Positions 1 through 7,157 of a DNA stretch of 64,000 bases are shown here, in pieces. Both the position numbers and the translations under genes were made by a program. The stretch comes from a virus. Position 1 is the stretch's first letter. The number at the start of each line of letters is the position of its first letter. The stretch is taken from the IMG/VR virus record IMGVR_UViG_3300024996_000004, one strand, 5' to 3'. Under the pieces are notes generated by a model. The model saw nothing but the letters and a program-made list of their open reading frames with translations. It ran no database searches and was not told where the DNA came from.

Positions 1-360
1 CGAGTGCTGCCCATAGCTTTGCGAAATGCTGCTAATGCTAATCCTGAACATGCTGAAGCATTGAATAAAGCTGCCAAGAATTGTGAAGAACTCGGCACTT
101 TGGATGCTGCTAATGCTGCCTATGATGCTGCTAATGATGCCTATGATGCTGCTGATGCTGCTTATGCTGCTTATGCTGCTTATGCTGCCTATGATGCTGC
201 CTATGATGCTGCTAATGCTGCTTATGCTGCCTATGATGCTGCTCATGCTGCAAGATATGCTGGCGATGATTCCAGCTTGCTTATCGGTGCTGATATTGCT
301 TTGCAAGCATTGATTCAGCTGGACTCACCGGGCTGCAAATACTTGCATCTTTGTGATTGA
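1..360 (+). CDS. Hypothetical protein with Ala/Tyr/Asp low-complexity repeat (5' truncated by window)
   Basis: Open frame from base 1 to TGA at 358-360; AAYDAANAAYAA repeats. Confidence 0.75.
   Translation, partial: RVLPIALRNAANANPEHAEALNKAAKNCEELGTLDAANAAYDAANDAYDAADAAYAAYAAYAAYDAAYDAANAAYAAYDAAHAARYAGDDSSLLIGADIALQALIQLDSPGCKYLHLCD
103..250 (+). repeat. Imperfect 9/12-bp tandem repeat (GCTGCYTATGAT / GCTGCTAAT) within ORF
   Basis: Directly visible tandem units. Confidence 0.9.
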
Positions 361-366
361 AAATGG

Positions 367-395
367 TTGCATGTCCATCGAAAATGCATTACACT
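367..395 (+). promoter_or_regulatory. Sigma70-type early promoter
   Basis: TTGCAT-17 bp-TACACT. Confidence 0.55.
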
Positions 396-421
396 TAAGG
401 CTCAATCAAGAGTAATTCAAC

Positions 422-532
422 ATGAAAAAGCGTATGGCAGAATGGTTCATGGGTGAAGGCTCCAAGGTGGATGTTGTCCTGTTCATCATCATTCTTGCAG
501 CATGTTACTACGTCGCTTCGCATCCGATTTGA
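422..532 (+). CDS. Small membrane protein (36 aa; not in ORF track)
   Basis: MKKRMAEWFMGEGSKVDVVLFIIILAACYYVASHPI; one hydrophobic helix; lies between two promoters. Confidence 0.6.
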   Translation: MKKRMAEWFMGEGSKVDVVLFIIILAACYYVASHPI

Positions 533-557
533 CATTCTGTAAAACCTGTAATACAAT
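529..557 (+). promoter_or_regulatory. Sigma70-type early promoter overlapping upstream TGA stop
   Basis: TTGACA-17 bp-TACAAT. Confidence 0.8.
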
Positions 558-588
558 ACACTCACCAACACAAACGAGGAATACAATC

Positions 589-801
589 ATGGCAATCAAG
601 GGTACTGTCGCGGAACTGTCCGGCAAGATTCGTTTCAACGGTCACACTCTCAGCGCGGCACAGTTTTCGGTGCTGACCAGTCTGGGCTTCGGCGTCAAGG
701 TGGGCGAGAAGGAAAAGGCTCCGAACACTCGCGGTCGTGCTGCGGCGATCTGGGAACTCGGTGACAGCTTCACGGCCAGCGTCGAGGTTGTGGAAAGCTG
801 A
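589..801 (+). CDS. Hypothetical early protein
   Basis: GAGGA RBS then ATG at 589; GC-rich codon use. Confidence 0.8.
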   Translation: MAIKGTVAELSGKIRFNGHTLSAAQFSVLTSLGFGVKVGEKEKAPNTRGRAAAIWELGDSFTASVEVVES

Positions 802-819
802 TCCAAAGTAGAAAAGTAA

Positions 820-907
820 AAAAGTAAAAAAGCCTAGCATGTCAAAGTGCTAGGCTTTTCTATGCTCTAAATTTCAATAACTCGATTCTCTATTCTCCCA
901 TCCTCCA
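820..907 (-). ncRNA. Candidate small RNA copy 1 (5' GGAGGAUGG)
   Basis: Minus-strand TTGACC-17-TAAAAT (940-912), invariant AGTGTGGAGGATGG, then terminator with U-tract; no useful ORF. Confidence 0.45.
827..859. terminator. Bidirectional intrinsic terminator
   Basis: AAAAGCCTAGCA-loop-TGCTAGGCTTTT; longer U-tract on minus strand. Confidence 0.85.
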
Positions 908-1000
908 CACTATTTTATTACATATAATAGAATTGGTCAAGAACTTTTTTTATGAACGAAAAAATGCTTGCAATGCTATTCCATTGCTGTATAATTCATT
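893..1000. repeat. ~110-bp direct repeat copy 1 carrying back-to-back divergent promoters
   Basis: Near-identical to 2236-2340; leftward TTGACC/TAAAAT, rightward TTGCAA/TATAAT. Confidence 0.9.
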
Positions 1001-1021
1001 TATTCCAACGGAGAACGTACC

Positions 1022-1903
1022 ATGTCCAAGGTTACGCAGTATCTGAATGATCGTGTTACTTCCATGCTCACCAATGGCATGATTCCGTGGCGCAAAACGT
1101 GGACAAGCAAAGGCTTGAAGCCCATGTCGATCACGGGACATGCCTACCGTGGCATTAACCTGTTTCTGTTTTCCATGCTCGGCCATGCTGTCCCGGTCTA
1201 TATCACGTTCAATCAGATCAAGAAAATGGGTGGCACGATCAAGGATGATGCGAAAGACAAGTATTATCCGGTCTACTTCTATTCCATGCTGGAAAAGGAT
1301 AAGACTGATCCTGCTGCGGGCAAGATTCCGATTTTCCGCTATTTCAATGTCTGGAACATCGAAGATGTTGACGGTATCAAGCTTCCGCCAAAGATTCAAA
1401 AGCAACTGGAATGGAAAGCTTCGCATGATGCTTCGCCCATTGAAGATGCCGTGAAACTGGTGGATGGTTACAAGGATGCCCCTACCATTGCACATGGTGG
1501 CGACGCTGCCTGCTACTCGCCTACGCTGGACAAAATTTCCATGCCTGCACCGGAAATGTTTGAAAATATGGGTGAATATTACGTCACTCTGTTTCATGAA
1601 ATGGGGCATAGCACGGGTCATGCCAAGCGTCTGAACCGTGAAGAACTGATGAAGATGACTGGCTTCGGCTCGCATGAATACAGCCGCGAAGAACTGGTAG
1701 CGGAAATGACTGCGGCCATGTTGGCAGGCGAGTGCGGCATCACCACGGAGTTTATGCTGGACAATTCTGCGGCATATCTGGCGGCATGGATGAAGAAAAT
1801 CAAGGATGAACCAAACATCCTGATCACTGCCGCCAGCCGTGCACAAAAGGCTGTCGATCATATCATGGGGACAACCTTTGATAATGGGGAAAGTGCCGAT
1901 TAA
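1022..1903 (+). CDS. ardC: ArdC-like antirestriction protein (ssDNA-binding domain + zincin-like metallopeptidase)
   Basis: PWRKTW, YRGIN, TFNQ, YFNVWN, ACYSP, HEMGH, YSREELVAE, SAAYL..W motifs. Confidence 0.9.
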   Translation: MSKVTQYLNDRVTSMLTNGMIPWRKTWTSKGLKPMSITGHAYRGINLFLFSMLGHAVPVYITFNQIKKMGGTIKDDAKDKYYPVYFYSMLEKDKTDPAAGKIPIFRYFNVWNIEDVDGIKLPPKIQKQLEWKASHDASPIEDAVKLVDGYKDAPTIAHGGDAACYSPTLDKISMPAPEMFENMGEYYVTLFHEMGHSTGHAKRLNREELMKMTGFGSHEYSREELVAEMTAAMLAGECGITTEFMLDNSAAYLAAWMKKIKDEPNILITAASRAQKAVDHIMGTTFDNGESAD

Positions 1904-1907
1904 TTGA

Positions 1908-1936
1908 TTGACAGATTGGAAGCATTGTATTATAAT
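1908..1936 (+). promoter_or_regulatory. Sigma70 consensus promoter
   Basis: TTGACA-17 bp-TATAAT. Confidence 0.9.
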
Positions 1937-1966
1937 GCTTCCGATCCAACAAAGAGAGCATACACC

Positions 1967-2182
1967 ATGTCATTACAATCGGACGCCGAAGCAAACTGGG
2001 GCAAGGATGAAGGTAGAGCAGCCATGCGCCAATATGAAGAATTGGCGCAAGATGAAGGCATCATTTATGCCGCAAATCAGCTGGAAAAGACTCTCAAGCA
2101 TATCAAGTCTTTCCTGCCTGATGATCAATGGCAACATTGCAAGGATTATGTCAAGTCTCAAGGCATCATCATCGAATTCTGA
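1967..2182 (+). CDS. Hypothetical early protein
   Basis: ATG at 1967 downstream of promoter. Confidence 0.7.
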   Translation: MSLQSDAEANWGKDEGRAAMRQYEELAQDEGIIYAANQLEKTLKHIKSFLPDDQWQHCKDYVKSQGIIIEF

Positions 2183-2184
2183 TC

Positions 2185-2250
2185 CATCCAATCCCTAGCC
2201 TAATCCGCTAGGGATTTTTTATTTTCATACTCTCATTCTCCCATCCTCCA
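2185..2250 (-). ncRNA. Candidate small RNA copy 2
   Basis: TTGACC-17-TAAAAT (2283-2255), AGTGTGGAGGATGGGAGAAT, hairpin; weak minus-strand U-tract. Confidence 0.35.
2190..2225 (+). terminator. Intrinsic terminator
   Basis: AATCCCTAGC-loop-GCTAGGGATT followed by T-run. Confidence 0.85.
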
Positions 2251-2340
2251 CACTATTTTATTATATGTAATGGAATTGGTCAAGAACTTTTTTATGAACA
2301 AAAAATGCTTGCAATACTGGAACATTCTGTTATAATTCAC
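2236..2340. repeat. Direct repeat copy 2 with divergent promoters
   Basis: Near-identical to 893-1000. Confidence 0.9.
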
Positions 2341-2359
2341 CTATCCAAAGGAGATCATC

Positions 2360-2689
2360 ATGGCATCTGAAATCCAATTCACCCATGCGCAGTACATGAA
2401 TGGGGAGTGCAGTCATAATGATTACTATGCGCAGTTTGTCACTCTGGCTCTGATTTATTTGGTCAGCACTGCTGTAGGCAAGCGAATCATTGCCAGCACT
2501 GATGAACACTTCAATGATATCCCGCTGTCTATTTGGGTTAATCTGTCGAATCGAGTATCGGATTGGCAACGCATGGCACGAGCAAATGATGGCCGAGCAT
2601 CTTTGTCTGACATGGTTTGCTTGTTGAAAGCTGCTGCACGTTGCTACAAGAATTCGGCAAAATTGATTGTCGATTATCCGCCATTGTGA
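2360..2689 (+). CDS. Hypothetical early protein
   Basis: AAGGAG RBS; promoter upstream. Confidence 0.8.
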   Translation: MASEIQFTHAQYMNGECSHNDYYAQFVTLALIYLVSTAVGKRIIASTDEHFNDIPLSIWVNLSNRVSDWQRMARANDGRASLSDMVCLLKAAARCYKNSAKLIVDYPPL

Positions 2690-2701
2690 TATCATACTGC
2701 C

Positions 2702-3034
2702 ATGAACATTCCTGAACAGCTTACTTTCCTTTTCTCGCATGATGAAAACACTGAATCCTATCAATCTGGATTACAGTCTGGGTTGACATGGGATGCTGAT
2801 TGGATGCCCGGTGGACCTTACGTGGAAACTTTCCGTCCAAGTCTGTCGGAAGAAATCTGCAAGCAACGTCTTGCTATGGTTGCGGAAAGTCGTCGCAAGT
2901 ATGATCTGTGGCATCGAGGATTCAAAACGGGACTGGAACAGCGCATGATCGCTTGTCCGGCTTTCGCAGCATGGTTCAAGGCTGGCCCTTATCCCTTCAA
3001 TCACAATCGTTTTGTGGAAGCTGTAGCAGCCTGA
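2702..3034 (+). CDS. Hypothetical early protein (possibly leaderless)
   Basis: TTGTCG-17-TATCAT ends 6 nt before ATG; no SD. Confidence 0.7.
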   Translation: MNIPEQLTFLFSHDENTESYQSGLQSGLTWDADWMPGGPYVETFRPSLSEEICKQRLAMVAESRRKYDLWHRGFKTGLEQRMIACPAFAAWFKAGPYPFNHNRFVEAVAA

Positions 3035-3103
3035 TAAAGACTATTGCATAGCTTCAAAACATTCTGTTATAATATCAACAATTCATCCAATAGGAGCGTT
3101 AAT

Positions 3104-3313
3104 ATGTCGGCTCTCGAAATTTTCAAGGTAGTGATCTACGCAGTTTCTGTCTACAATGCGGCATATGCTATCTATGGGCTTGTCTCACAGTTCGCTCTTT
3201 CTATCGTGATTCTATACAACAAGAGTGGTACGATTCTTTACAAGCTTATGGGACTCTATGCTGCACTGCTATTCTTGAGCCTGCACACTCTCAACATGCT
3301 TGAATTCCGTTGA
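3104..3313 (+). CDS. Small two-TM membrane protein
   Basis: AGGAG RBS; hydrophobic; promoter TTGCAT-18-TATAAT at 3044-3073. Confidence 0.7.
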   Translation: MSALEIFKVVIYAVSVYNAAYAIYGLVSQFALSIVILYNKSGTILYKLMGLYAALLFLSLHTLNMLEFR

Positions 3314-3338
3314 CAGTCTAGACATTCCGTTATATAAT
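3310..3338 (+). promoter_or_regulatory. Sigma70 consensus promoter overlapping upstream TGA
   Basis: TTGACA-17-TATAAT. Confidence 0.9.
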
Positions 3339-3362
3339 GCTTGTCAGACATGGAGACATACC

Positions 3363-3605
3363 GTGAGCAAGATGATTGAAAACTTCACGCAGTTCCGTGC
3401 TTTCCACTATGCGATGAAGCCTACCGATAATCTGCGCATGGGTCAACGTTTCATTAACATGTACATCAAGAATGATAGCGACCATTGCGAATGGTTCAAA
3501 GGCATGTATCAGGCGGATGATGCCAGAGCGTACTATCTGATTCTGAATTGGTTGTTGGATCATAACTATTATGATACCATGCCAACTCCATTACATCCCT
3601 GCTAG
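3363..3605 (+). CDS. Hypothetical early protein (LRMGQRF motif)
   Basis: GGAG RBS; GTG 3363 or ATG 3372 start. Confidence 0.7.
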   Translation: MSKMIENFTQFRAFHYAMKPTDNLRMGQRFINMYIKNDSDHCEWFKGMYQADDARAYYLILNWLLDHNYYDTMPTPLHPC

Positions 3606-3615
3606 GACAATAGCC

Positions 3616-3843
3616 ATGCAAATGTCTCAAGATATGTTCGATGCCATGATGAAACATCATGATGAATATTTCAAGAATCATGGACTTGTTCACTCTTTCA
3701 AGAATGAACAAGCATGGGAACAGCATCTCACCAAAGCATGGCTTTTCGACTGGCGCGAACAATGGGGCATCCTGCGCACCGTGCGAAATTCCATCGGCAT
3801 TACGGAAGCTTTTCACCAGTTTCGCAACTATCAAAAAATTTGA
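3616..3843 (+). CDS. Hypothetical early protein
   Basis: AGGA RBS, ATG 3616. Confidence 0.7.
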   Translation: MQMSQDMFDAMMKHHDEYFKNHGLVHSFKNEQAWEQHLTKAWLFDWREQWGILRTVRNSIGITEAFHQFRNYQKI

Positions 3844-3868
3844 CAGACTCTAGCAGTTCTGTTACAAT
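3840..3868 (+). promoter_or_regulatory. Sigma70 promoter overlapping upstream TGA
   Basis: TTGACA-17-TACAAT with extended TG. Confidence 0.85.
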
Positions 3869-3895
3869 CATCACACAATCACAAAGGAGTTCTCC

Positions 3896-4207
3896 ATGAA
3901 CAGTGCCGATATGTTGGCGATCATGAACGCGAAAGACACCATCCGTGCTAATTTTGATCGTTTCGTTGAAAGCATGGTCAACACCTATCCTACTGAATTC
4001 ATGGATATGCTGCGAAAGCTGTCAGACTTCAAGGTGACTCTCGATGGCATTAATCGGTATATCTCTGTTGATAATATGTCCCGATTGAAGAAATTGTGGC
4101 TGGCTGACGATAAAGTCGAGGCCATCAAACTGTTTCGCAATTTGACCCATTCTACTCTCTATGATGCCAAGCATTTCATGGAAACTTTTGCATGGGATAA
4201 TTGGTAA
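3896..4207 (+). CDS. Protein with ribosomal L7/L12 C-terminal-like domain
   Basis: KVEAIKLFRNLTHSTLYDAKHFME resembles the bL12 CTD motif K..AIK..R..T...L.EAK..VE. Confidence 0.7.
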   Translation: MNSADMLAIMNAKDTIRANFDRFVESMVNTYPTEFMDMLRKLSDFKVTLDGINRYISVDNMSRLKKLWLADDKVEAIKLFRNLTHSTLYDAKHFMETFAWDNW

Positions 4208-4389
4208 TGTCTTTTCCAGCCGTTTCAGAGCCTGCTGGCGACGTTTCTAACCTTGTTCCGCTACGTCGCTCCCTTGAGTATCAGCAAGGCTACTGGAACG
4301 GTTTTATGGGCGAACCAAAGACTATGACAACGGAACGCTACTTGATCGGCTATGCGGATGGCATGGCCGATTCTTTGTTGACAGACTAA
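4207..4389 (+). CDS. Hypothetical early protein
   Basis: TAATG coupling; Y..GY..G repeats. Confidence 0.6.
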   Translation: MSFPAVSEPAGDVSNLVPLRRSLEYQQGYWNGFMGEPKTMTTERYLIGYADGMADSLLTD

Positions 4390-4406
4390 CCATCCTGTTA
4401 TACAGT
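4378..4406 (+). promoter_or_regulatory. Sigma70-type promoter
   Basis: TTGACA-17-TACAGT. Confidence 0.65.
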
Positions 4407-4434
4407 ATTCCCTAACATAATGGAGCATTTCATC

Positions 4435-4611
4435 ATGACTTACGTATGGATCATGGCCTTTCTGTTTTCATGGAGTCTCAGTATTTTGTGTCAGTTTAAT
4501 CGTGACCTATACAAAAGATTTCTGAATTATTGGATTGATCGTGCCATTACCAGTCTGCTGATGCTGACTTCTTTTCTCATGATCGTTGCTTCGCTATTGC
4601 CAAAACATTAG
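4435..4611 (+). CDS. Small two-TM membrane protein
   Basis: GGAG RBS; two hydrophobic segments. Confidence 0.65.
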   Translation: MTYVWIMAFLFSWSLSILCQFNRDLYKRFLNYWIDRAITSLLMLTSFLMIVASLLPKH

Positions 4612-4625
4612 CAGTCTGTTACAAT
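4597..4625 (+). promoter_or_regulatory. Sigma70-type promoter
   Basis: TTGCCA-17-TACAAT with extended TG. Confidence 0.75.
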
Positions 4626-4656
4626 GCTTTCATTCTCACAAGCAAAGGTGTTGACC

Positions 4657-4944
4657 ATGTTTAATGGCAAAATAATGCTCAAGAACATGAAAGCGATTGA
4701 AGGCAGCTACCGCCAGCTTGATTGGTCAGATGAATCCCAGAGCATCATTCCCATTGAATATGATGGTGAACTGACTCCCGAAGTCTGCAACGCTGCTGTC
4801 CAAGCGCTACAAAAGCATATCAATGCTCAACCTCAAGAATCCAGCTACGGTAAACTGCGCTGGTCTACTCCTGATGTTATCAATGGCGTTGACGTTGAAC
4901 AGCGTGGCATCATTGTAACTCACGTCACCCGAATCACGGATTGA
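4657..4944 (+). CDS. Hypothetical early protein
   Basis: AAGGTG RBS, ATG 4657. Confidence 0.7.
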   Translation: MFNGKIMLKNMKAIEGSYRQLDWSDESQSIIPIEYDGELTPEVCNAAVQALQKHINAQPQESSYGKLRWSTPDVINGVDVEQRGIIVTHVTRITD

Positions 4945-4969
4945 CAGACTGCTCATTTCCTTGTATCAT
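4941..4969 (+). promoter_or_regulatory. Sigma70 promoter overlapping upstream TGA
   Basis: TTGACA-17-TATCAT. Confidence 0.8.
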
Positions 4970-4992
4970 TAACTCATCATCGGAGCATCATC

Positions 4993-5139
4993 ATGGACAA
5001 ATGTCGATTCTGTGGCAAGAGCGACTGCGATGATGATTGCGAGGAACTGGCGTCCATCTATCGTCAACAGCAACGTGAAAAACTGCGAGACATTGATGTT
5101 GATGAATTGGACTTCGATGAATATTATATGGAAAACTGA
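4993..5139 (+). CDS. Small Cys-rich acidic protein (48 aa; not in ORF track)
   Basis: GGAG RBS; MDKCRFCGKSDCDDDCEELASIYRQQQREKLRDIDVDELDFDEYYMEN. Confidence 0.7.
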   Translation: MDKCRFCGKSDCDDDCEELASIYRQQQREKLRDIDVDELDFDEYYMEN

Positions 5140-5149
5140 TCTGGCATAG

Positions 5150-5178
5150 TTGACATGACGGACATTTCTTAATATAAT
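5150..5178 (+). promoter_or_regulatory. Sigma70 consensus promoter
   Basis: TTGACA-17-TATAAT. Confidence 0.9.
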
Positions 5179-5205
5179 ATTCTCACTCTCAACGGAAACT
5201 CCATT

Positions 5206-5463
5206 ATGTCGAAAACTTATCGTTTTGAAGTGATCGAGCGCAAGTTTTGGAAGAATGTCCAGACTGGTCAGACTGCCTCTATCTATGGCGCGATTCCGGC
5301 TGGTGAAGGGTGGAAGATGGTGAAAGATGGTTTCACTTTCCGTGACAATCGCTTCAACAGTGTCGGTTCCTATGGTTCCCGCGATTTGCGTACCGTGGAT
5401 GAAATCGAAGCCTATTTGTGCAAACACAATGGCCCTACTTGGGCATTGCAGCACATTAATTGA
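5206..5463 (+). CDS. Hypothetical early protein
   Basis: ORF behind own promoter. Confidence 0.75.
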   Translation: MSKTYRFEVIERKFWKNVQTGQTASIYGAIPAGEGWKMVKDGFTFRDNRFNSVGSYGSRDLRTVDEIEAYLCKHNGPTWALQHIN

Positions 5464-5473
5464 CAGTCTACTA

Positions 5474-5502
5474 TTGCATAGACTCGTCACATAAGGTATA
5501 AT
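5474..5502 (+). promoter_or_regulatory. Sigma70-type promoter (an extra TTGACA at 5460 overlaps the upstream stop)
   Basis: TTGCAT-17-TATAAT. Confidence 0.75.
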
Positions 5503-5526
5503 ACCTTCACATCATGGGAGCATAGC

Positions 5527-5742
5527 ATGACTCGCAAGAATCTGTATCAGTCTGGTCGTCTTTCCATTCGCTATGGTGTGAAGTCCCTGACCTATCATCG
5601 TCAGCCGACTCCCAGTGAAATCAAGGCAGGTTACGGTGCGATCCACTACCGCGACTTCACCATTGAAGAATGTTGCTATAAGGGGACAAGGATCAACAAG
5701 CGCTGGTTCAAGGCTGATGACGGACTGCGCTACTATCGCTAA
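5527..5742 (+). CDS. Hypothetical basic early protein
   Basis: GGGAG RBS; YHRQPTPSEIKAGYGAIHYRDF. Confidence 0.75.
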   Translation: MTRKNLYQSGRLSIRYGVKSLTYHRQPTPSEIKAGYGAIHYRDFTIEECCYKGTRINKRWFKADDGLRYYR

Positions 5743-5773
5743 GTCTATTCTCAGACTCACAGGAATATTCACT

Positions 5774-5974
5774 GTGACACTTCCCACTATCGAACAACTT
5801 CGCACTGCAATGAAGAATGTTGAACACTGTCTGACCATCACTGACGTGTCCAGTTACAATGTTGAAAAACAATGTTACATGGTCAGTGTAACAGGACAGA
5901 TGGAAAAGACTGAACGGAGAACTGATGGAATTAAAGTTTTATCAGCTTTACAATCCGTTCTAATCCATTGTTGA
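5774..5974 (+). CDS. Hypothetical early protein
   Basis: AGGA RBS, GTG start. Confidence 0.6.
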   Translation: MTLPTIEQLRTAMKNVEHCLTITDVSSYNVEKQCYMVSVTGQMEKTERRTDGIKVLSALQSVLIHC

Positions 5975-5999
5975 CAGATTGATCATTCTATAATATAAT
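5971..5999 (+). promoter_or_regulatory. Sigma70 consensus promoter overlapping upstream TGA
   Basis: TTGACA-17-TATAAT. Confidence 0.9.
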
Positions 6000-6029
6000 A
6001 CCTCCAACATCCAAGCGAGGATTGATGAT

Positions 6030-6278
6030 ATGATCGTCATGGAAATCAAGCATGATACTCTCCACCGCACATGGCATAGGCTGAGTGTCGGCCTCAAGGA
6101 TGTTATCGCGGAAGCTGGCAATCGTGAAGCATTGCAGCATGGTTGCCGCCTCCATCTATGGCAGTATGCCGTTGACCACCAGATGAATCATCACATGCTT
6201 GCCGTGCGAGCCGTGAAGAAAGAAACTGGTGAAGTGATTGTCACCTATGCTTCCGATGCAATGGTCAATCGTCAATAG
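6030..6278 (+). CDS. Hypothetical early protein
   Basis: GAGG RBS. Confidence 0.75.
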   Translation: MIVMEIKHDTLHRTWHRLSVGLKDVIAEAGNREALQHGCRLHLWQYAVDHQMNHHMLAVRAVKKETGEVIVTYASDAMVNRQ

Positions 6279-6299
6279 TCAATCGCACAGTGTAACACA

Positions 6300-6361
6300 T
6301 TGGATAAGGCTAGTCAAGTGCTAGTCTTATTCTTTTATAGTGTTGATCTTTCCATCCTCCA
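6300..6361 (-). ncRNA. Candidate small RNA copy 3
   Basis: Extended -10 TGATAAAAT (6374-6366), AGTGTGGAGGATGG, hairpin. Confidence 0.35.
6303..6337 (+). terminator. Intrinsic terminator
   Basis: ATAAGGCTAG-loop-CTAGTCTTAT followed by TCTTTT. Confidence 0.7.
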
Positions 6362-6519
6362 CACTATTTTATCATAGACATACTGAACGTAAGCTGAATG
6401 AAATATGTTCAGGTTCTATTCAGGTTAGCCATGCTATAATCTTGTAATGCTAAAACAAGTTTGACAATTTTAAAGAATGCTTTTTTATTTTACTGGAATA
6501 CTAGGGTATAGGTATGGCT

Positions 6520-6770
6520 CAGCACTTAAAAAATGTTAACTATGTTTTAAATTTTTTTAAAAATTTTTTATAATATTCATCGAGCACTTAAAATACACTA
6601 ATTATATTTTAAAAATTTTTCCATAATATTCACACAGATCATTTTAAATTTTTTTAAAAATTTTTATAATAATTTCCAAATTTTAAAAAGAAGAGTGTAC
6701 ATCATGTATTCATAGATCAATAGTATATGATACATCGTTTCAAAAATTTTTTAGAAAATTTTTTCAATAT
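6520..6770. repeat. Non-coding A/T-tract repeat array
   Basis: Four related units of TTTTAAA(T)n AAAAATTTTT(T) ATAAT; AGCACTTAAAA twice. Confidence 0.8.
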
Positions 6771-6833
6771 GACTATCATCGTTGTACATAATAGTGTATA
6801 CTATCAAGCCTCATTTTAACATTAGGAAAGTCA

Positions 6834-7157
6834 ATGAAATTATATGAAGTAAAAGAGGATGATACGATAGAGAGTATTGCAGAATATTGTTCAATATCGG
6901 TTAATGTTTTATTGTATGCTAACCCTGATTTGAAACATAGATATTACAACAATATCAAATTAACAGTAGGTCAATGTCTTAACATTCCAGATATGTATAT
7001 TAAACCTGTGAAGATTGATTATCAAGATTACTTGGCATGGACAGAATCTGCTTATATAGAAAAGGAAATTCCAAAGAAAACAATCATGGATCGATTGAAA
7101 GACTTTAAGCATAAGATGATGACAAAACTTTTTAAGGAATGGTATCAAAATGACTAA
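6834..7157 (+). CDS. LysM domain protein
   Basis: YEVKEDDTIESIA...LLYANPDL...LTVGQCLNIP. Confidence 0.85.
   Translation: MKLYEVKEDDTIESIAEYCSISVNVLLYANPDLKHRYYNNIKLTVGQCLNIPDMYIKPVKIDYQDYLAWTESAYIEKEIPKKTIMDRLKDFKHKMMTKLFKEWYQND

Follow-up and report, generated by a model that had tools for sequence, protein, structure and literature searches.

Why should one 21-nucleotide (nt) sequence recur without a mismatch in the DNA of an uncultured virus, and what would it do there? The stretch analyzed, hereafter the window, comprises 64,000 nt (64 kb) of the IMG/VR virus record IMGVR_UViG_3300024996_000004, and the element in question is the 21-mer CCATCCTCCACACTATTTTAT, found in three exact copies on the + strand at 898, 2241, and 6352 (copies 1 to 3). 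With up to three mismatches allowed, the window holds no further match, and 100 shuffles gave an expectation of zero. An earlier note on this DNA took the copies for leftward promoters of a small-RNA family whose invariant 5′ end runs into a hairpin. Our analysis assigns the 21-mer to about −12 to +9, probably as the core of a promoter cassette that is complete in itself and appears specific to one phage clade. The motif family comprises 29 copies in five related uncultured jumbo phages, all of them in an early-gene block of higher guanine plus cytosine (GC) content.

Read on the minus strand, the first two copies contain TTGACC-17-TAAAAT. Module copy 1 (886–962) consists of an UP-like A-tract (943–957), the −35 TTGACC (940–935), a palindrome-like 17-nt spacer, the −10 TAAAAT (917–912), AG, and GGATGG (903–898), and its predicted +1 is the G at ~905, positioned after the −10. 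In module copy 2 (2229–2300), TTGACC lies at 2283–2278, TAAAAT again 17 nt away at 2260–2255, and GGATGG at 2246–2241. These two are the sole 10/12 promoter calls on the minus strand within window positions 1–7000. Module copy 3 (6345–6400, minus strand), the boundary copy, has no −35; it combines a TTCA-repeat box (6399–6384) with the extended −10 TGATAAAAT (6374–6366) and GGATGG (6357–6352). Each copy has a hairpin on its left, at 831–856 (called on the minus strand as 862–825), 2190–2216, and 6302–6332, with gaps of ~41, 24, and 19 nt, and among the three a minus-strand terminator with a U tract was found at copy 1 only. The earlier note had described the copies, their hairpins, the hexamers, the extended −10, and the U tract accurately, and the leftward promoters that it proposed are very probably real and of host type. 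Hexamers 16–18 bp apart, or else a TGn-extended −10, are what sigma-70 promoters show, and this is what most of the cassettes contain; given the exact grammar, the G at +1, the G at −5, and the upstream A-tracts, we consider it highly probable, as far as sequence can tell, that they are host-type (sigma-70) promoters. A G at −5 favors stable open complexes.

The motif, its distribution, and its pattern of conservation could be observed directly in relatives, where the motif search suggested by the earlier note was carried out. Besides the three window copies, the family has three copies in a 175-kb viral contig (G001, reached via L001), two in a 7.6-kb metagenome contig (L116), one in a contig reached via the Ala-rich gene family at the window start (L119), nine in a 340-kb phage reached via the AAA protein downstream of the border (G002, via L126), and 11 in a 350-kb phage from a pattern scan (G003). 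The last 127 nt of L119 equal window positions 1–127, and this common stretch is a repeated gene flank, so that L119 belongs to the same phage or a near relative, contiguity not being proven. G001 is syntenic with the window at 65–74% DNA identity, and L116 has only the Ala-rich gene and the cassettes in common with it. The copies are tightly clustered: all nine of G002 lie in 30 kb of its 340 kb, and those of G003 all lie in ~30 kb of 350 kb. Two of the 11 G003 copies are one-base variants, the border copy reading TAAGAT in the −10 and the other GGATCG in the downstream box.

Among cultured phages, megablast with window positions 1–7000 gave no match, and sensitive blastn with one type I and one type II module gave A/T-rich chance matches only. 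A scan of genome contigs with the 21-mer returned 0 matches, and a protein search of viral contigs with the Ala-rich family found no related loci. The boundary 15-mer, used as a scan query, hit 113 chance loci and was uninformative, and the scan with TAAAATAG-N6-GGATGGGA yielded G003 together with 92 identical unrelated matches from one sample. The latter, 92 IMG/VR contigs of sample 3300045988 (L156 onwards), all carry an identical TAAAATAGTGAGCGGGATGGGA unrelated to the promoter family; judged from a few similar matches, it is probably the complement of a transfer RNA (tRNA) 3′ end behind an A/T-rich stretch. The feature, absent from cultured phages in these searches, is by its sequence a new clade-specific promoter family with a fixed predicted transcript start.

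Ungapped alignment on the promoter strand gave TAAAAT-AG-N4-G-N-GGATGG-R-R-R-R. Seven bases past the hexamer, at the canonical +1, 27 of 27 aligned copies have G, and purines occupy +9 to +12 in 25–27 of them, both features lying outside the search pattern. Positions −4 to −1 and +2 vary freely across the same copies, the variable-middle subtypes including TGTGGA, GGWYGT, TATGGC, ACTGGC, ATTGGC, and AGACGA. The alignment indicates that the start is under strong selection, in agreement with the conserved 5′ end of the earlier note; the invariant part, however, is G-N-GGAUGG instead of its GGAGGAUGG, and the perfect Shine–Dalgarno sequence that it placed in the conserved seed is not a family feature. 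GGAGG is confined to the window's subtype, being missing from all G002 copies and most G003 copies, while GGAUGG is conserved, so that, family-wide, the case for a 30S decoy is weaker. The G002 copies all read G-T-GGATGGGAAG and do not keep the purine richness past +12. One copy has 7-nt instead of 6-nt spacing. Relaxing the −10 while keeping GGATGG gave no additional true copies, reversed-pattern controls gave 0 throughout, and two G002 copies found independently via the spacer carry the same GGATGG box. On its own, TAAAATAG is not enriched in the window (7 observed vs. 7.65 expected), and a promoter class defined by TAAAATAG alone was rejected on that ground.

Upstream of the core, the cassettes fall into two classes. 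Class (a), 12 copies including window copies 1 and 2, has a −35 element (TTGAC(C/A), TTGATC, or TTGCAA, matching at 4 of 6 positions at least) at 16–18 bp, often with an upstream A-tract and a spacer containing the near-palindrome ATTAYATRTAAT. This 12-bp sequence lies in the 17-nt spacer at window 918–934 and 2261–2277 and at G002 175499, 178947, 183829, 186004, and 187826; five of its six occurrences in the 340-kb G002 genome are within cassettes, and it looks like an operator. Class (b), 16–17 copies including window copy 3, has no −35 and carries in its place a TTCA-N7-(G)TTCAG box (about −39 to −24) whose distance from the hexamer is constant; GTTCAG lies at about −29 to −24, and the second TTCA 11 bp upstream. 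TGn precedes the −10 in eight copies of this class. The layout, with a box instead of a −35, suggests an activator, and the eight copies with neither −35 nor TGn would need one.

Three other identities for the core were considered and rejected. A promoter for a T7-like single-subunit polymerase on the + strand, with CACACTAT as the common part, would start with U or A and meets orientation conflicts in the relatives; moreover, the opposite strand matches the sigma-70 grammar exactly. A DnaA box (TGTGGAT) matches at only 6–7 of 9 positions and is lost in several subtypes, and a Chi-like site leaves the −10 unexplained.

The early genes run in a single direction in all these blocks, and 12 of the 29 copies point with them and 17 against. 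Co-directional copies lie 50–70 nt upstream of a second promoter, usually of the TTGCAA type, that directly serves a gene. Antisense copies of class (a) stand back-to-back with a gene promoter, the −35 boxes being 24–54 bp apart. In the window these gene promoters are both TTGCAA-16-TATAAT on the + strand: the one at 968–995 serves an ArdC-like gene (1022–1903) and has an A/T tract in common with copy 1, and the one at 2309–2336 belongs to an open reading frame (ORF) at 2360–2689 and diverges from copy 2. L116 and G002 have homologous genes (56% amino-acid identity) that both follow a module and a gene promoter, with differing module subtypes. Relative to a homologous gene promoter and leader, the window and L116 have a 72-bp segment in opposite orientations. 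Along the block, the orientations run ++++------- in G003, +++--+--- in G002, and +--- in the window phage, provided that L119 is contiguous with the window. Given the synteny of the switch region between phages, the polarity may be a single ancestral arrangement. In G001 (L001 12000–12125), two cassette cores converge ~77 bp apart to form a long inverted repeat, which a third GGAGGATGG adjoins, and the pair sits between a terminator and the last early promoter of that phage. A Rho-utilization site on the + strand (C-rich, G-poor) was rejected because the sense RNA of co-directional copies would carry the G-rich strand, and a miniature inverted-repeat transposable element was rejected as neither terminal repeats nor target duplications were seen.

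The predicted products differ among the copies. The hairpins beside the window copies are terminators of the upstream + strand genes: that of copy 2 has no U tract on the minus strand, that of copy 3 pairs better on the + strand (a G–U there vs. an A–C mismatch on the minus strand), and neither copy has an efficient minus-strand terminator. Without a U tract at its hairpin (2216–2190), the predicted transcript of copy 2 would continue antisense into the gene at 1966–2182; copy 3 faces the last early gene (6030–6278) and its terminator (6302–6332). The minus-strand ORFs below the window promoters are antisense shadows: the + strand genes opposite them come with promoters and ribosome-binding sites of their own. 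From copy 1, an RNA of ~80 nt is predicted (818–905, minus strand) with an unpaired purine-rich 5′ end followed by the bidirectional terminator (862–825) and a long U tract; the + strand gene at 589–801 has a 3′ untranslated end complementary to it. Folding left the 5′ tag unpaired in the predicted transcripts of copies 1 and 2, and the folds of seven predicted transcripts had nothing in common beyond sense-gene terminators. Rfam searches gave no match in the window and only tRNAs in the relatives, and no tRNA or Rfam genes lie downstream of the modules. A leaderless mini-ORF from the AUG inside GGAUGG was rejected, such ORFs having from 3 to 31 or more codons and not being conserved.

The idea of a small-RNA family survives these results in part. 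The succession of promoter, conserved 5′ end, variable middle, and terminator does recur, cleanly at window copy 1, G002 185991, G003 59350, and G003 67786 and imperfectly at three more copies, so that some units have the layout of a short antisense RNA gene, but others fire into genes. A GC-rich hairpin plus U tract on the same strand within ~50–300 nt of the promoter, as a small-RNA gene with a Rho-independent terminator would have, is absent at window copies 2 and 3 and at every co-directional copy. An RNA running into a hairpin is therefore no family trait, nor is there a conserved fold, and the claim of the earlier note that no gene needs these promoters does not extend to the 12 members that point with the genes upstream of a gene promoter.

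Both upstream versions put the start at the invariant G seven bases past TAAAAT, and every transcript would thus begin with G-N-GGAUGG followed by purines. Two different upstream halves and both orientations on one core speak for selection on the product, or on the core itself; orientation independence, the two upstream halves, and an invariance that begins at +1 together suggest that the transcript 5′ end is the product. We therefore favor, tentatively and at somewhat less than an even chance, the reading that the cassettes form a promoter family placing one shared 5′ tag on its RNAs, with the transcript 5′ end as what is selected. Host sigma-70 RNA polymerase would read the cassette in its two upstream versions, and the single-stranded purine-rich tag would serve either as a site for an RNA-binding factor, one candidate being a CsrA/RsmA-type protein at GGAUG, or as a 5′ seed. 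All three window copies would fire leftward, against the early genes: copy 1 as a complete gene for a small RNA, copies 2 and 3 sending tagged antisense transcripts through the upstream genes' 3′ ends, and copy 3 in addition meeting early transcription head-on at the border of the late-gene region.

Several observations weigh against this reading. The −10 is always TAAAAT plus AG, a constancy that a role of the RNA leaves unexplained and that a reader of DNA would explain better. Because the search that yielded the G002 and G003 copies fixed TAAAATAG and GGATGG, those copies are subject to ascertainment bias; in favor of a real constraint, 27 of all 31 TAAAATAG sites in the early blocks have G-N-GGATGG downstream at the invariant spacing and another has GGATCG, a test that removes the pattern bias only partly. 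Copies within a genome are more alike than copies from different genomes and have the same variable middle, so gene conversion may inflate the apparent constraint. The 17 antisense copies are followed by only four clean and three imperfect U-tract terminators, with predicted RNAs of 50–85 nt, and no discrete small RNA is expected from the co-directional copies, which have no terminator before the next promoter. Complementary targets in the window and G002 were limited to the modules themselves, and the GGA motifs are crowded at the 5′ end, more closely spaced and more terminal than a textbook CsrA site would allow.

A fuller version of the tag reading, which we think quite unlikely as a whole, has the cassettes mark chosen early transcripts, both antisense small RNAs and messenger RNA leaders, with the 5′ tag pppG-N-GGAUGG-purines. 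A host CsrA/RsmA-like protein or a phage factor would read the tag, the phage would thereby titrate the regulator or protect the RNAs from 5′-end-dependent decay, and the two promoter versions would supply tagged RNAs before and after remodeling of the host polymerase.

The same conservation could also be read at the level of DNA. A phage or host protein, or a modified polymerase, would then recognize −12 to +8 and switch a promoter class on or off, for example in a shut-down at the early-to-late transition, and the RNAs would have no sequence-specific function. The invariance of TAAAAT and AG, where other hexamers serve sigma-70 equally well, is accounted for by such a reader, and so is the orientation-independent, bipartite conservation of 8 bp and 6 bp around a free middle; the palindromic spacer of the −35 class and the direct TTCA repeats 11 bp apart in the other both look like regulator sites. 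GGATGG, however, has no symmetric partner, the altered spacing in one copy fits poorly, and the predicted +1 is just where the invariant stretch starts. The analysis turned up no candidate binding protein: the AsiA profile had no match in G001 or G002, and its controls, which gave no match either, make this result uninformative. On balance, we regard the DNA-level account as possible yet rather unlikely.

The position of the boundary copy brings in a further alternative. The window, G001, G002, and G003 have this copy at a corresponding position, in flanks that are 65–74% identical or unalignable, and when the right borders of the four early blocks were aligned, the module stood out as a footprint in barely alignable DNA. 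Each window copy lies 19–41 nt beyond a sense terminator and faces it, and together with the boundary copy, the convergent pair of G001, and the polar orientation of the cassettes, with left-hand copies pointing with the genes and right-hand copies against, this would suit cis-only counter-transcription or insulator units. The antisense copies would reinforce the upstream terminators through head-on collision and pairing with read-through RNA and would keep early transcription from the neighboring unit and, at copy 3, from the late-gene region; the co-directional copies would be extra upstream promoters. Such units leave the invariant +1 to +8 and the fixed −10 unexplained and give no common role to 12 co-directional and 17 antisense copies, and the polarity, being syntenic, may reflect one ancestral arrangement. 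We judge this explanation unlikely.

Promoter early stem-loop (PeSL) cassettes have been described in T4-type phages (Arbiol et al. 2010, PMC2839356; Comeau et al. 2014, PMC4122927) and offer a very unlikely account of the family as recombination linkers: repeated regulatory units, kept alike by gene conversion, that mainly shuffle early genes and whose orientation is accidental. The same variable middle within a genome is a sign of concerted evolution, and the same cassette and 5′ leader stand before unrelated genes in the window and L116, between which the 72-bp segment is inverted. Like PeSLs, the cassettes are repeated units of ~70–100 bp in plastic early regions transcribed by the host polymerase of large T4-related phages; they have a strong sigma-70–like promoter, an A/T-rich upstream tract, and adjoining stem-loop terminators; and one cassette precedes unrelated small genes, with signs of recombination and homogenization. 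PeSLs, however, all share the direction of the genes, each ending in the following gene's ribosome-binding site and ATG, and their common parts are the promoter boxes and a G/C stem-loop. Here the common part runs from −12 to about +12, the hairpins lie outside the unit and vary in sequence and distance, 17 of the 29 copies are antisense, and a separate second promoter serves the gene. The window copies are thus not PeSL cassettes, and closer counterparts are the ordinary TTGACAGWCT...TATAAT gene promoters of the early block. Homogenization within a genome cannot fix the same 8 + 1 + 6 positions across five phages whose coding DNA is at most ~70% identical, and here too no terminal repeats or target duplications were seen. 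PeSL-like shuffling accounts for the spread and homogenization of the cassettes but not for the constraint across phages.

Priming of replication by R-loops as at T4 oriF/oriG, for which we found no specific support, or a role of the RNAs as anti-Shine–Dalgarno decoys for 30S, is highly improbable: the transcript start is G- and purine-rich, the replication genes are T4-like, and type I copies contain GGAGG, but 9–11 copies in 30 kb are too many for origins and converge rather than diverge, the block shows no skew signal, the purine richness past +12 is lost in G002, and GGAGG is absent from its copies.

Other known systems resemble single aspects of the family. The lambda OOP and P22 sar RNAs are antisense RNAs of ~70–80 nt with a constitutive host-type promoter and a terminator in common with the convergent gene, a layout found at window copy 1 and at several G002 and G003 copies. 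Those RNAs are single-copy and act by full complementarity to one neighboring message, whereas here the units are multi-copy with one common 5′ end and unrelated bodies, and almost half are not antisense. T4 middle promoters combine a MotA box (TGCTT core) near −30 with a −10 that is often extended, and class (b) similarly has a −10, often with TGn, and a conserved box replacing the −35. The box, however, is GTTCAG/TTCA rather than TGCTT and differs in spacing, and 12 family copies have a normal −35, so that the family does not belong to the middle promoters; nor was an AsiA homologue detected in G001 or G002, though the profile controls were also silent.

On the RNA side, GGAUG is the core of the CsrA consensus obtained by SELEX (systematic evolution of ligands by exponential enrichment) and of the CsrB repeat CAGGAUG, and the conserved GGAUG likens the family to CsrB/RsmZ. 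A CsrA/RsmA sponge has several GGA motifs, mostly in hairpin loops and at a spacing that a dimer can bridge, whereas here each RNA has only two to three adjacent GGA in an unpaired 5′ end; no match to the CsrA profile, and hence no CsrA gene, was found in G001 or G002. In Hfq-dependent small RNAs acting through a 5′ seed (RybB, OmrA/B), the extreme 5′ end is conserved and unpaired and is followed by a variable body and a terminator, a layout that the predicted RNAs resemble; for these, however, no target was found in the window or G002. Both the CsrA-sponge and the seed-RNA idea of the earlier note may still apply to the family.

Repeated promoter cassettes and single antisense RNAs are thus already known in phages, and what is new is that the first eight predicted transcript bases are fixed across five diverged giant phages, behind two unrelated upstream regions and in both orientations. 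The pattern suggests that something reads either RNA 5′ ends or start-site DNA during early infection. The motif also provides a sharp sequence marker for the early block of an uncultured clade, and the conserved head-on border copy lends itself to asking how late genes are shielded from early transcription in large phages.

A large T4-related phage is the source of the window, which encodes a DNA polymerase 49% identical to the one of Xanthomonas phage XacN1 together with topoisomerase II and ribonucleotide reductase. The early block occupies positions 1–6400 on the + strand at ~44% GC, vs. ~30% in the rest, and contains all window copies of the module; around a dozen + strand TTGACA-17-TATAAT promoters and small ORFs, including the ArdC-like protein, lie there, and copy 3 sits exactly at the compositional border. 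The corresponding figures are ~44% in G001, 39–49% in G002 (163–193 kb), and 44–53% in G003 (42–73 kb), with ~30–35% elsewhere. The block exceeds the remaining genome by 10–20 GC points in all four phages, which marks it as an old, maintained feature and not a recent insertion. The IMG/VR "direct terminal repeat" of G002 (1–130 and 340215–340344) is a (TAA)n simple repeat, so that the completeness or circularity of the record is not established by it.

To the right of copy 3, the four phages keep a further set of noncoding blocks (6432–6519, + strand): TGCTATAAT at 6432–6440, the 22-mer TGTAATGCTAAAACAAGTTTGA at 6443–6464, a T run, and a 27-mer at 6493–6519 containing GGGTATAGG, a TGn-extended −10 on the + strand being among them. 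The core of the 27-mer is reverse-complemented in G002. These blocks are probably an element separate from the module and may give a small transcript of their own or bind a protein at the early/late border. Past the border, G001 (L001 10500–11200) has dense short repeats of the CTCCATYCTGT and ATATAAAGARAATAT types and the window has A5T5-type repeats at 6540–6780, the two arrays occupying the same position with different sequences.

The early blocks held some further features. An Ala/Tyr/Asp-rich repeat protein family, multi-copy and with conserved ends, is encoded at window 1–360, L116 2312–3007 and 7318–7581, and L119 10001–10717 and 14043 to the end; it has 643 database relatives and no Pfam domain, and its repeats appear to break assemblies, as the window and L119 both end within a copy. 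A very basic peptide of 41 residues is 92% identical between L119 (12279–12404) and G002 (177362–177484), other early proteins being ~50–60% identical, and it may resemble the ribosome-rescue factor ArfA. At L119 5359–5437, ARAGORN called a tRNA with the anticodon TTA, which would read the UAA stop; the Rfam tRNA model gave only 32 bits, and the locus may be a suppressor tRNA in the early block.

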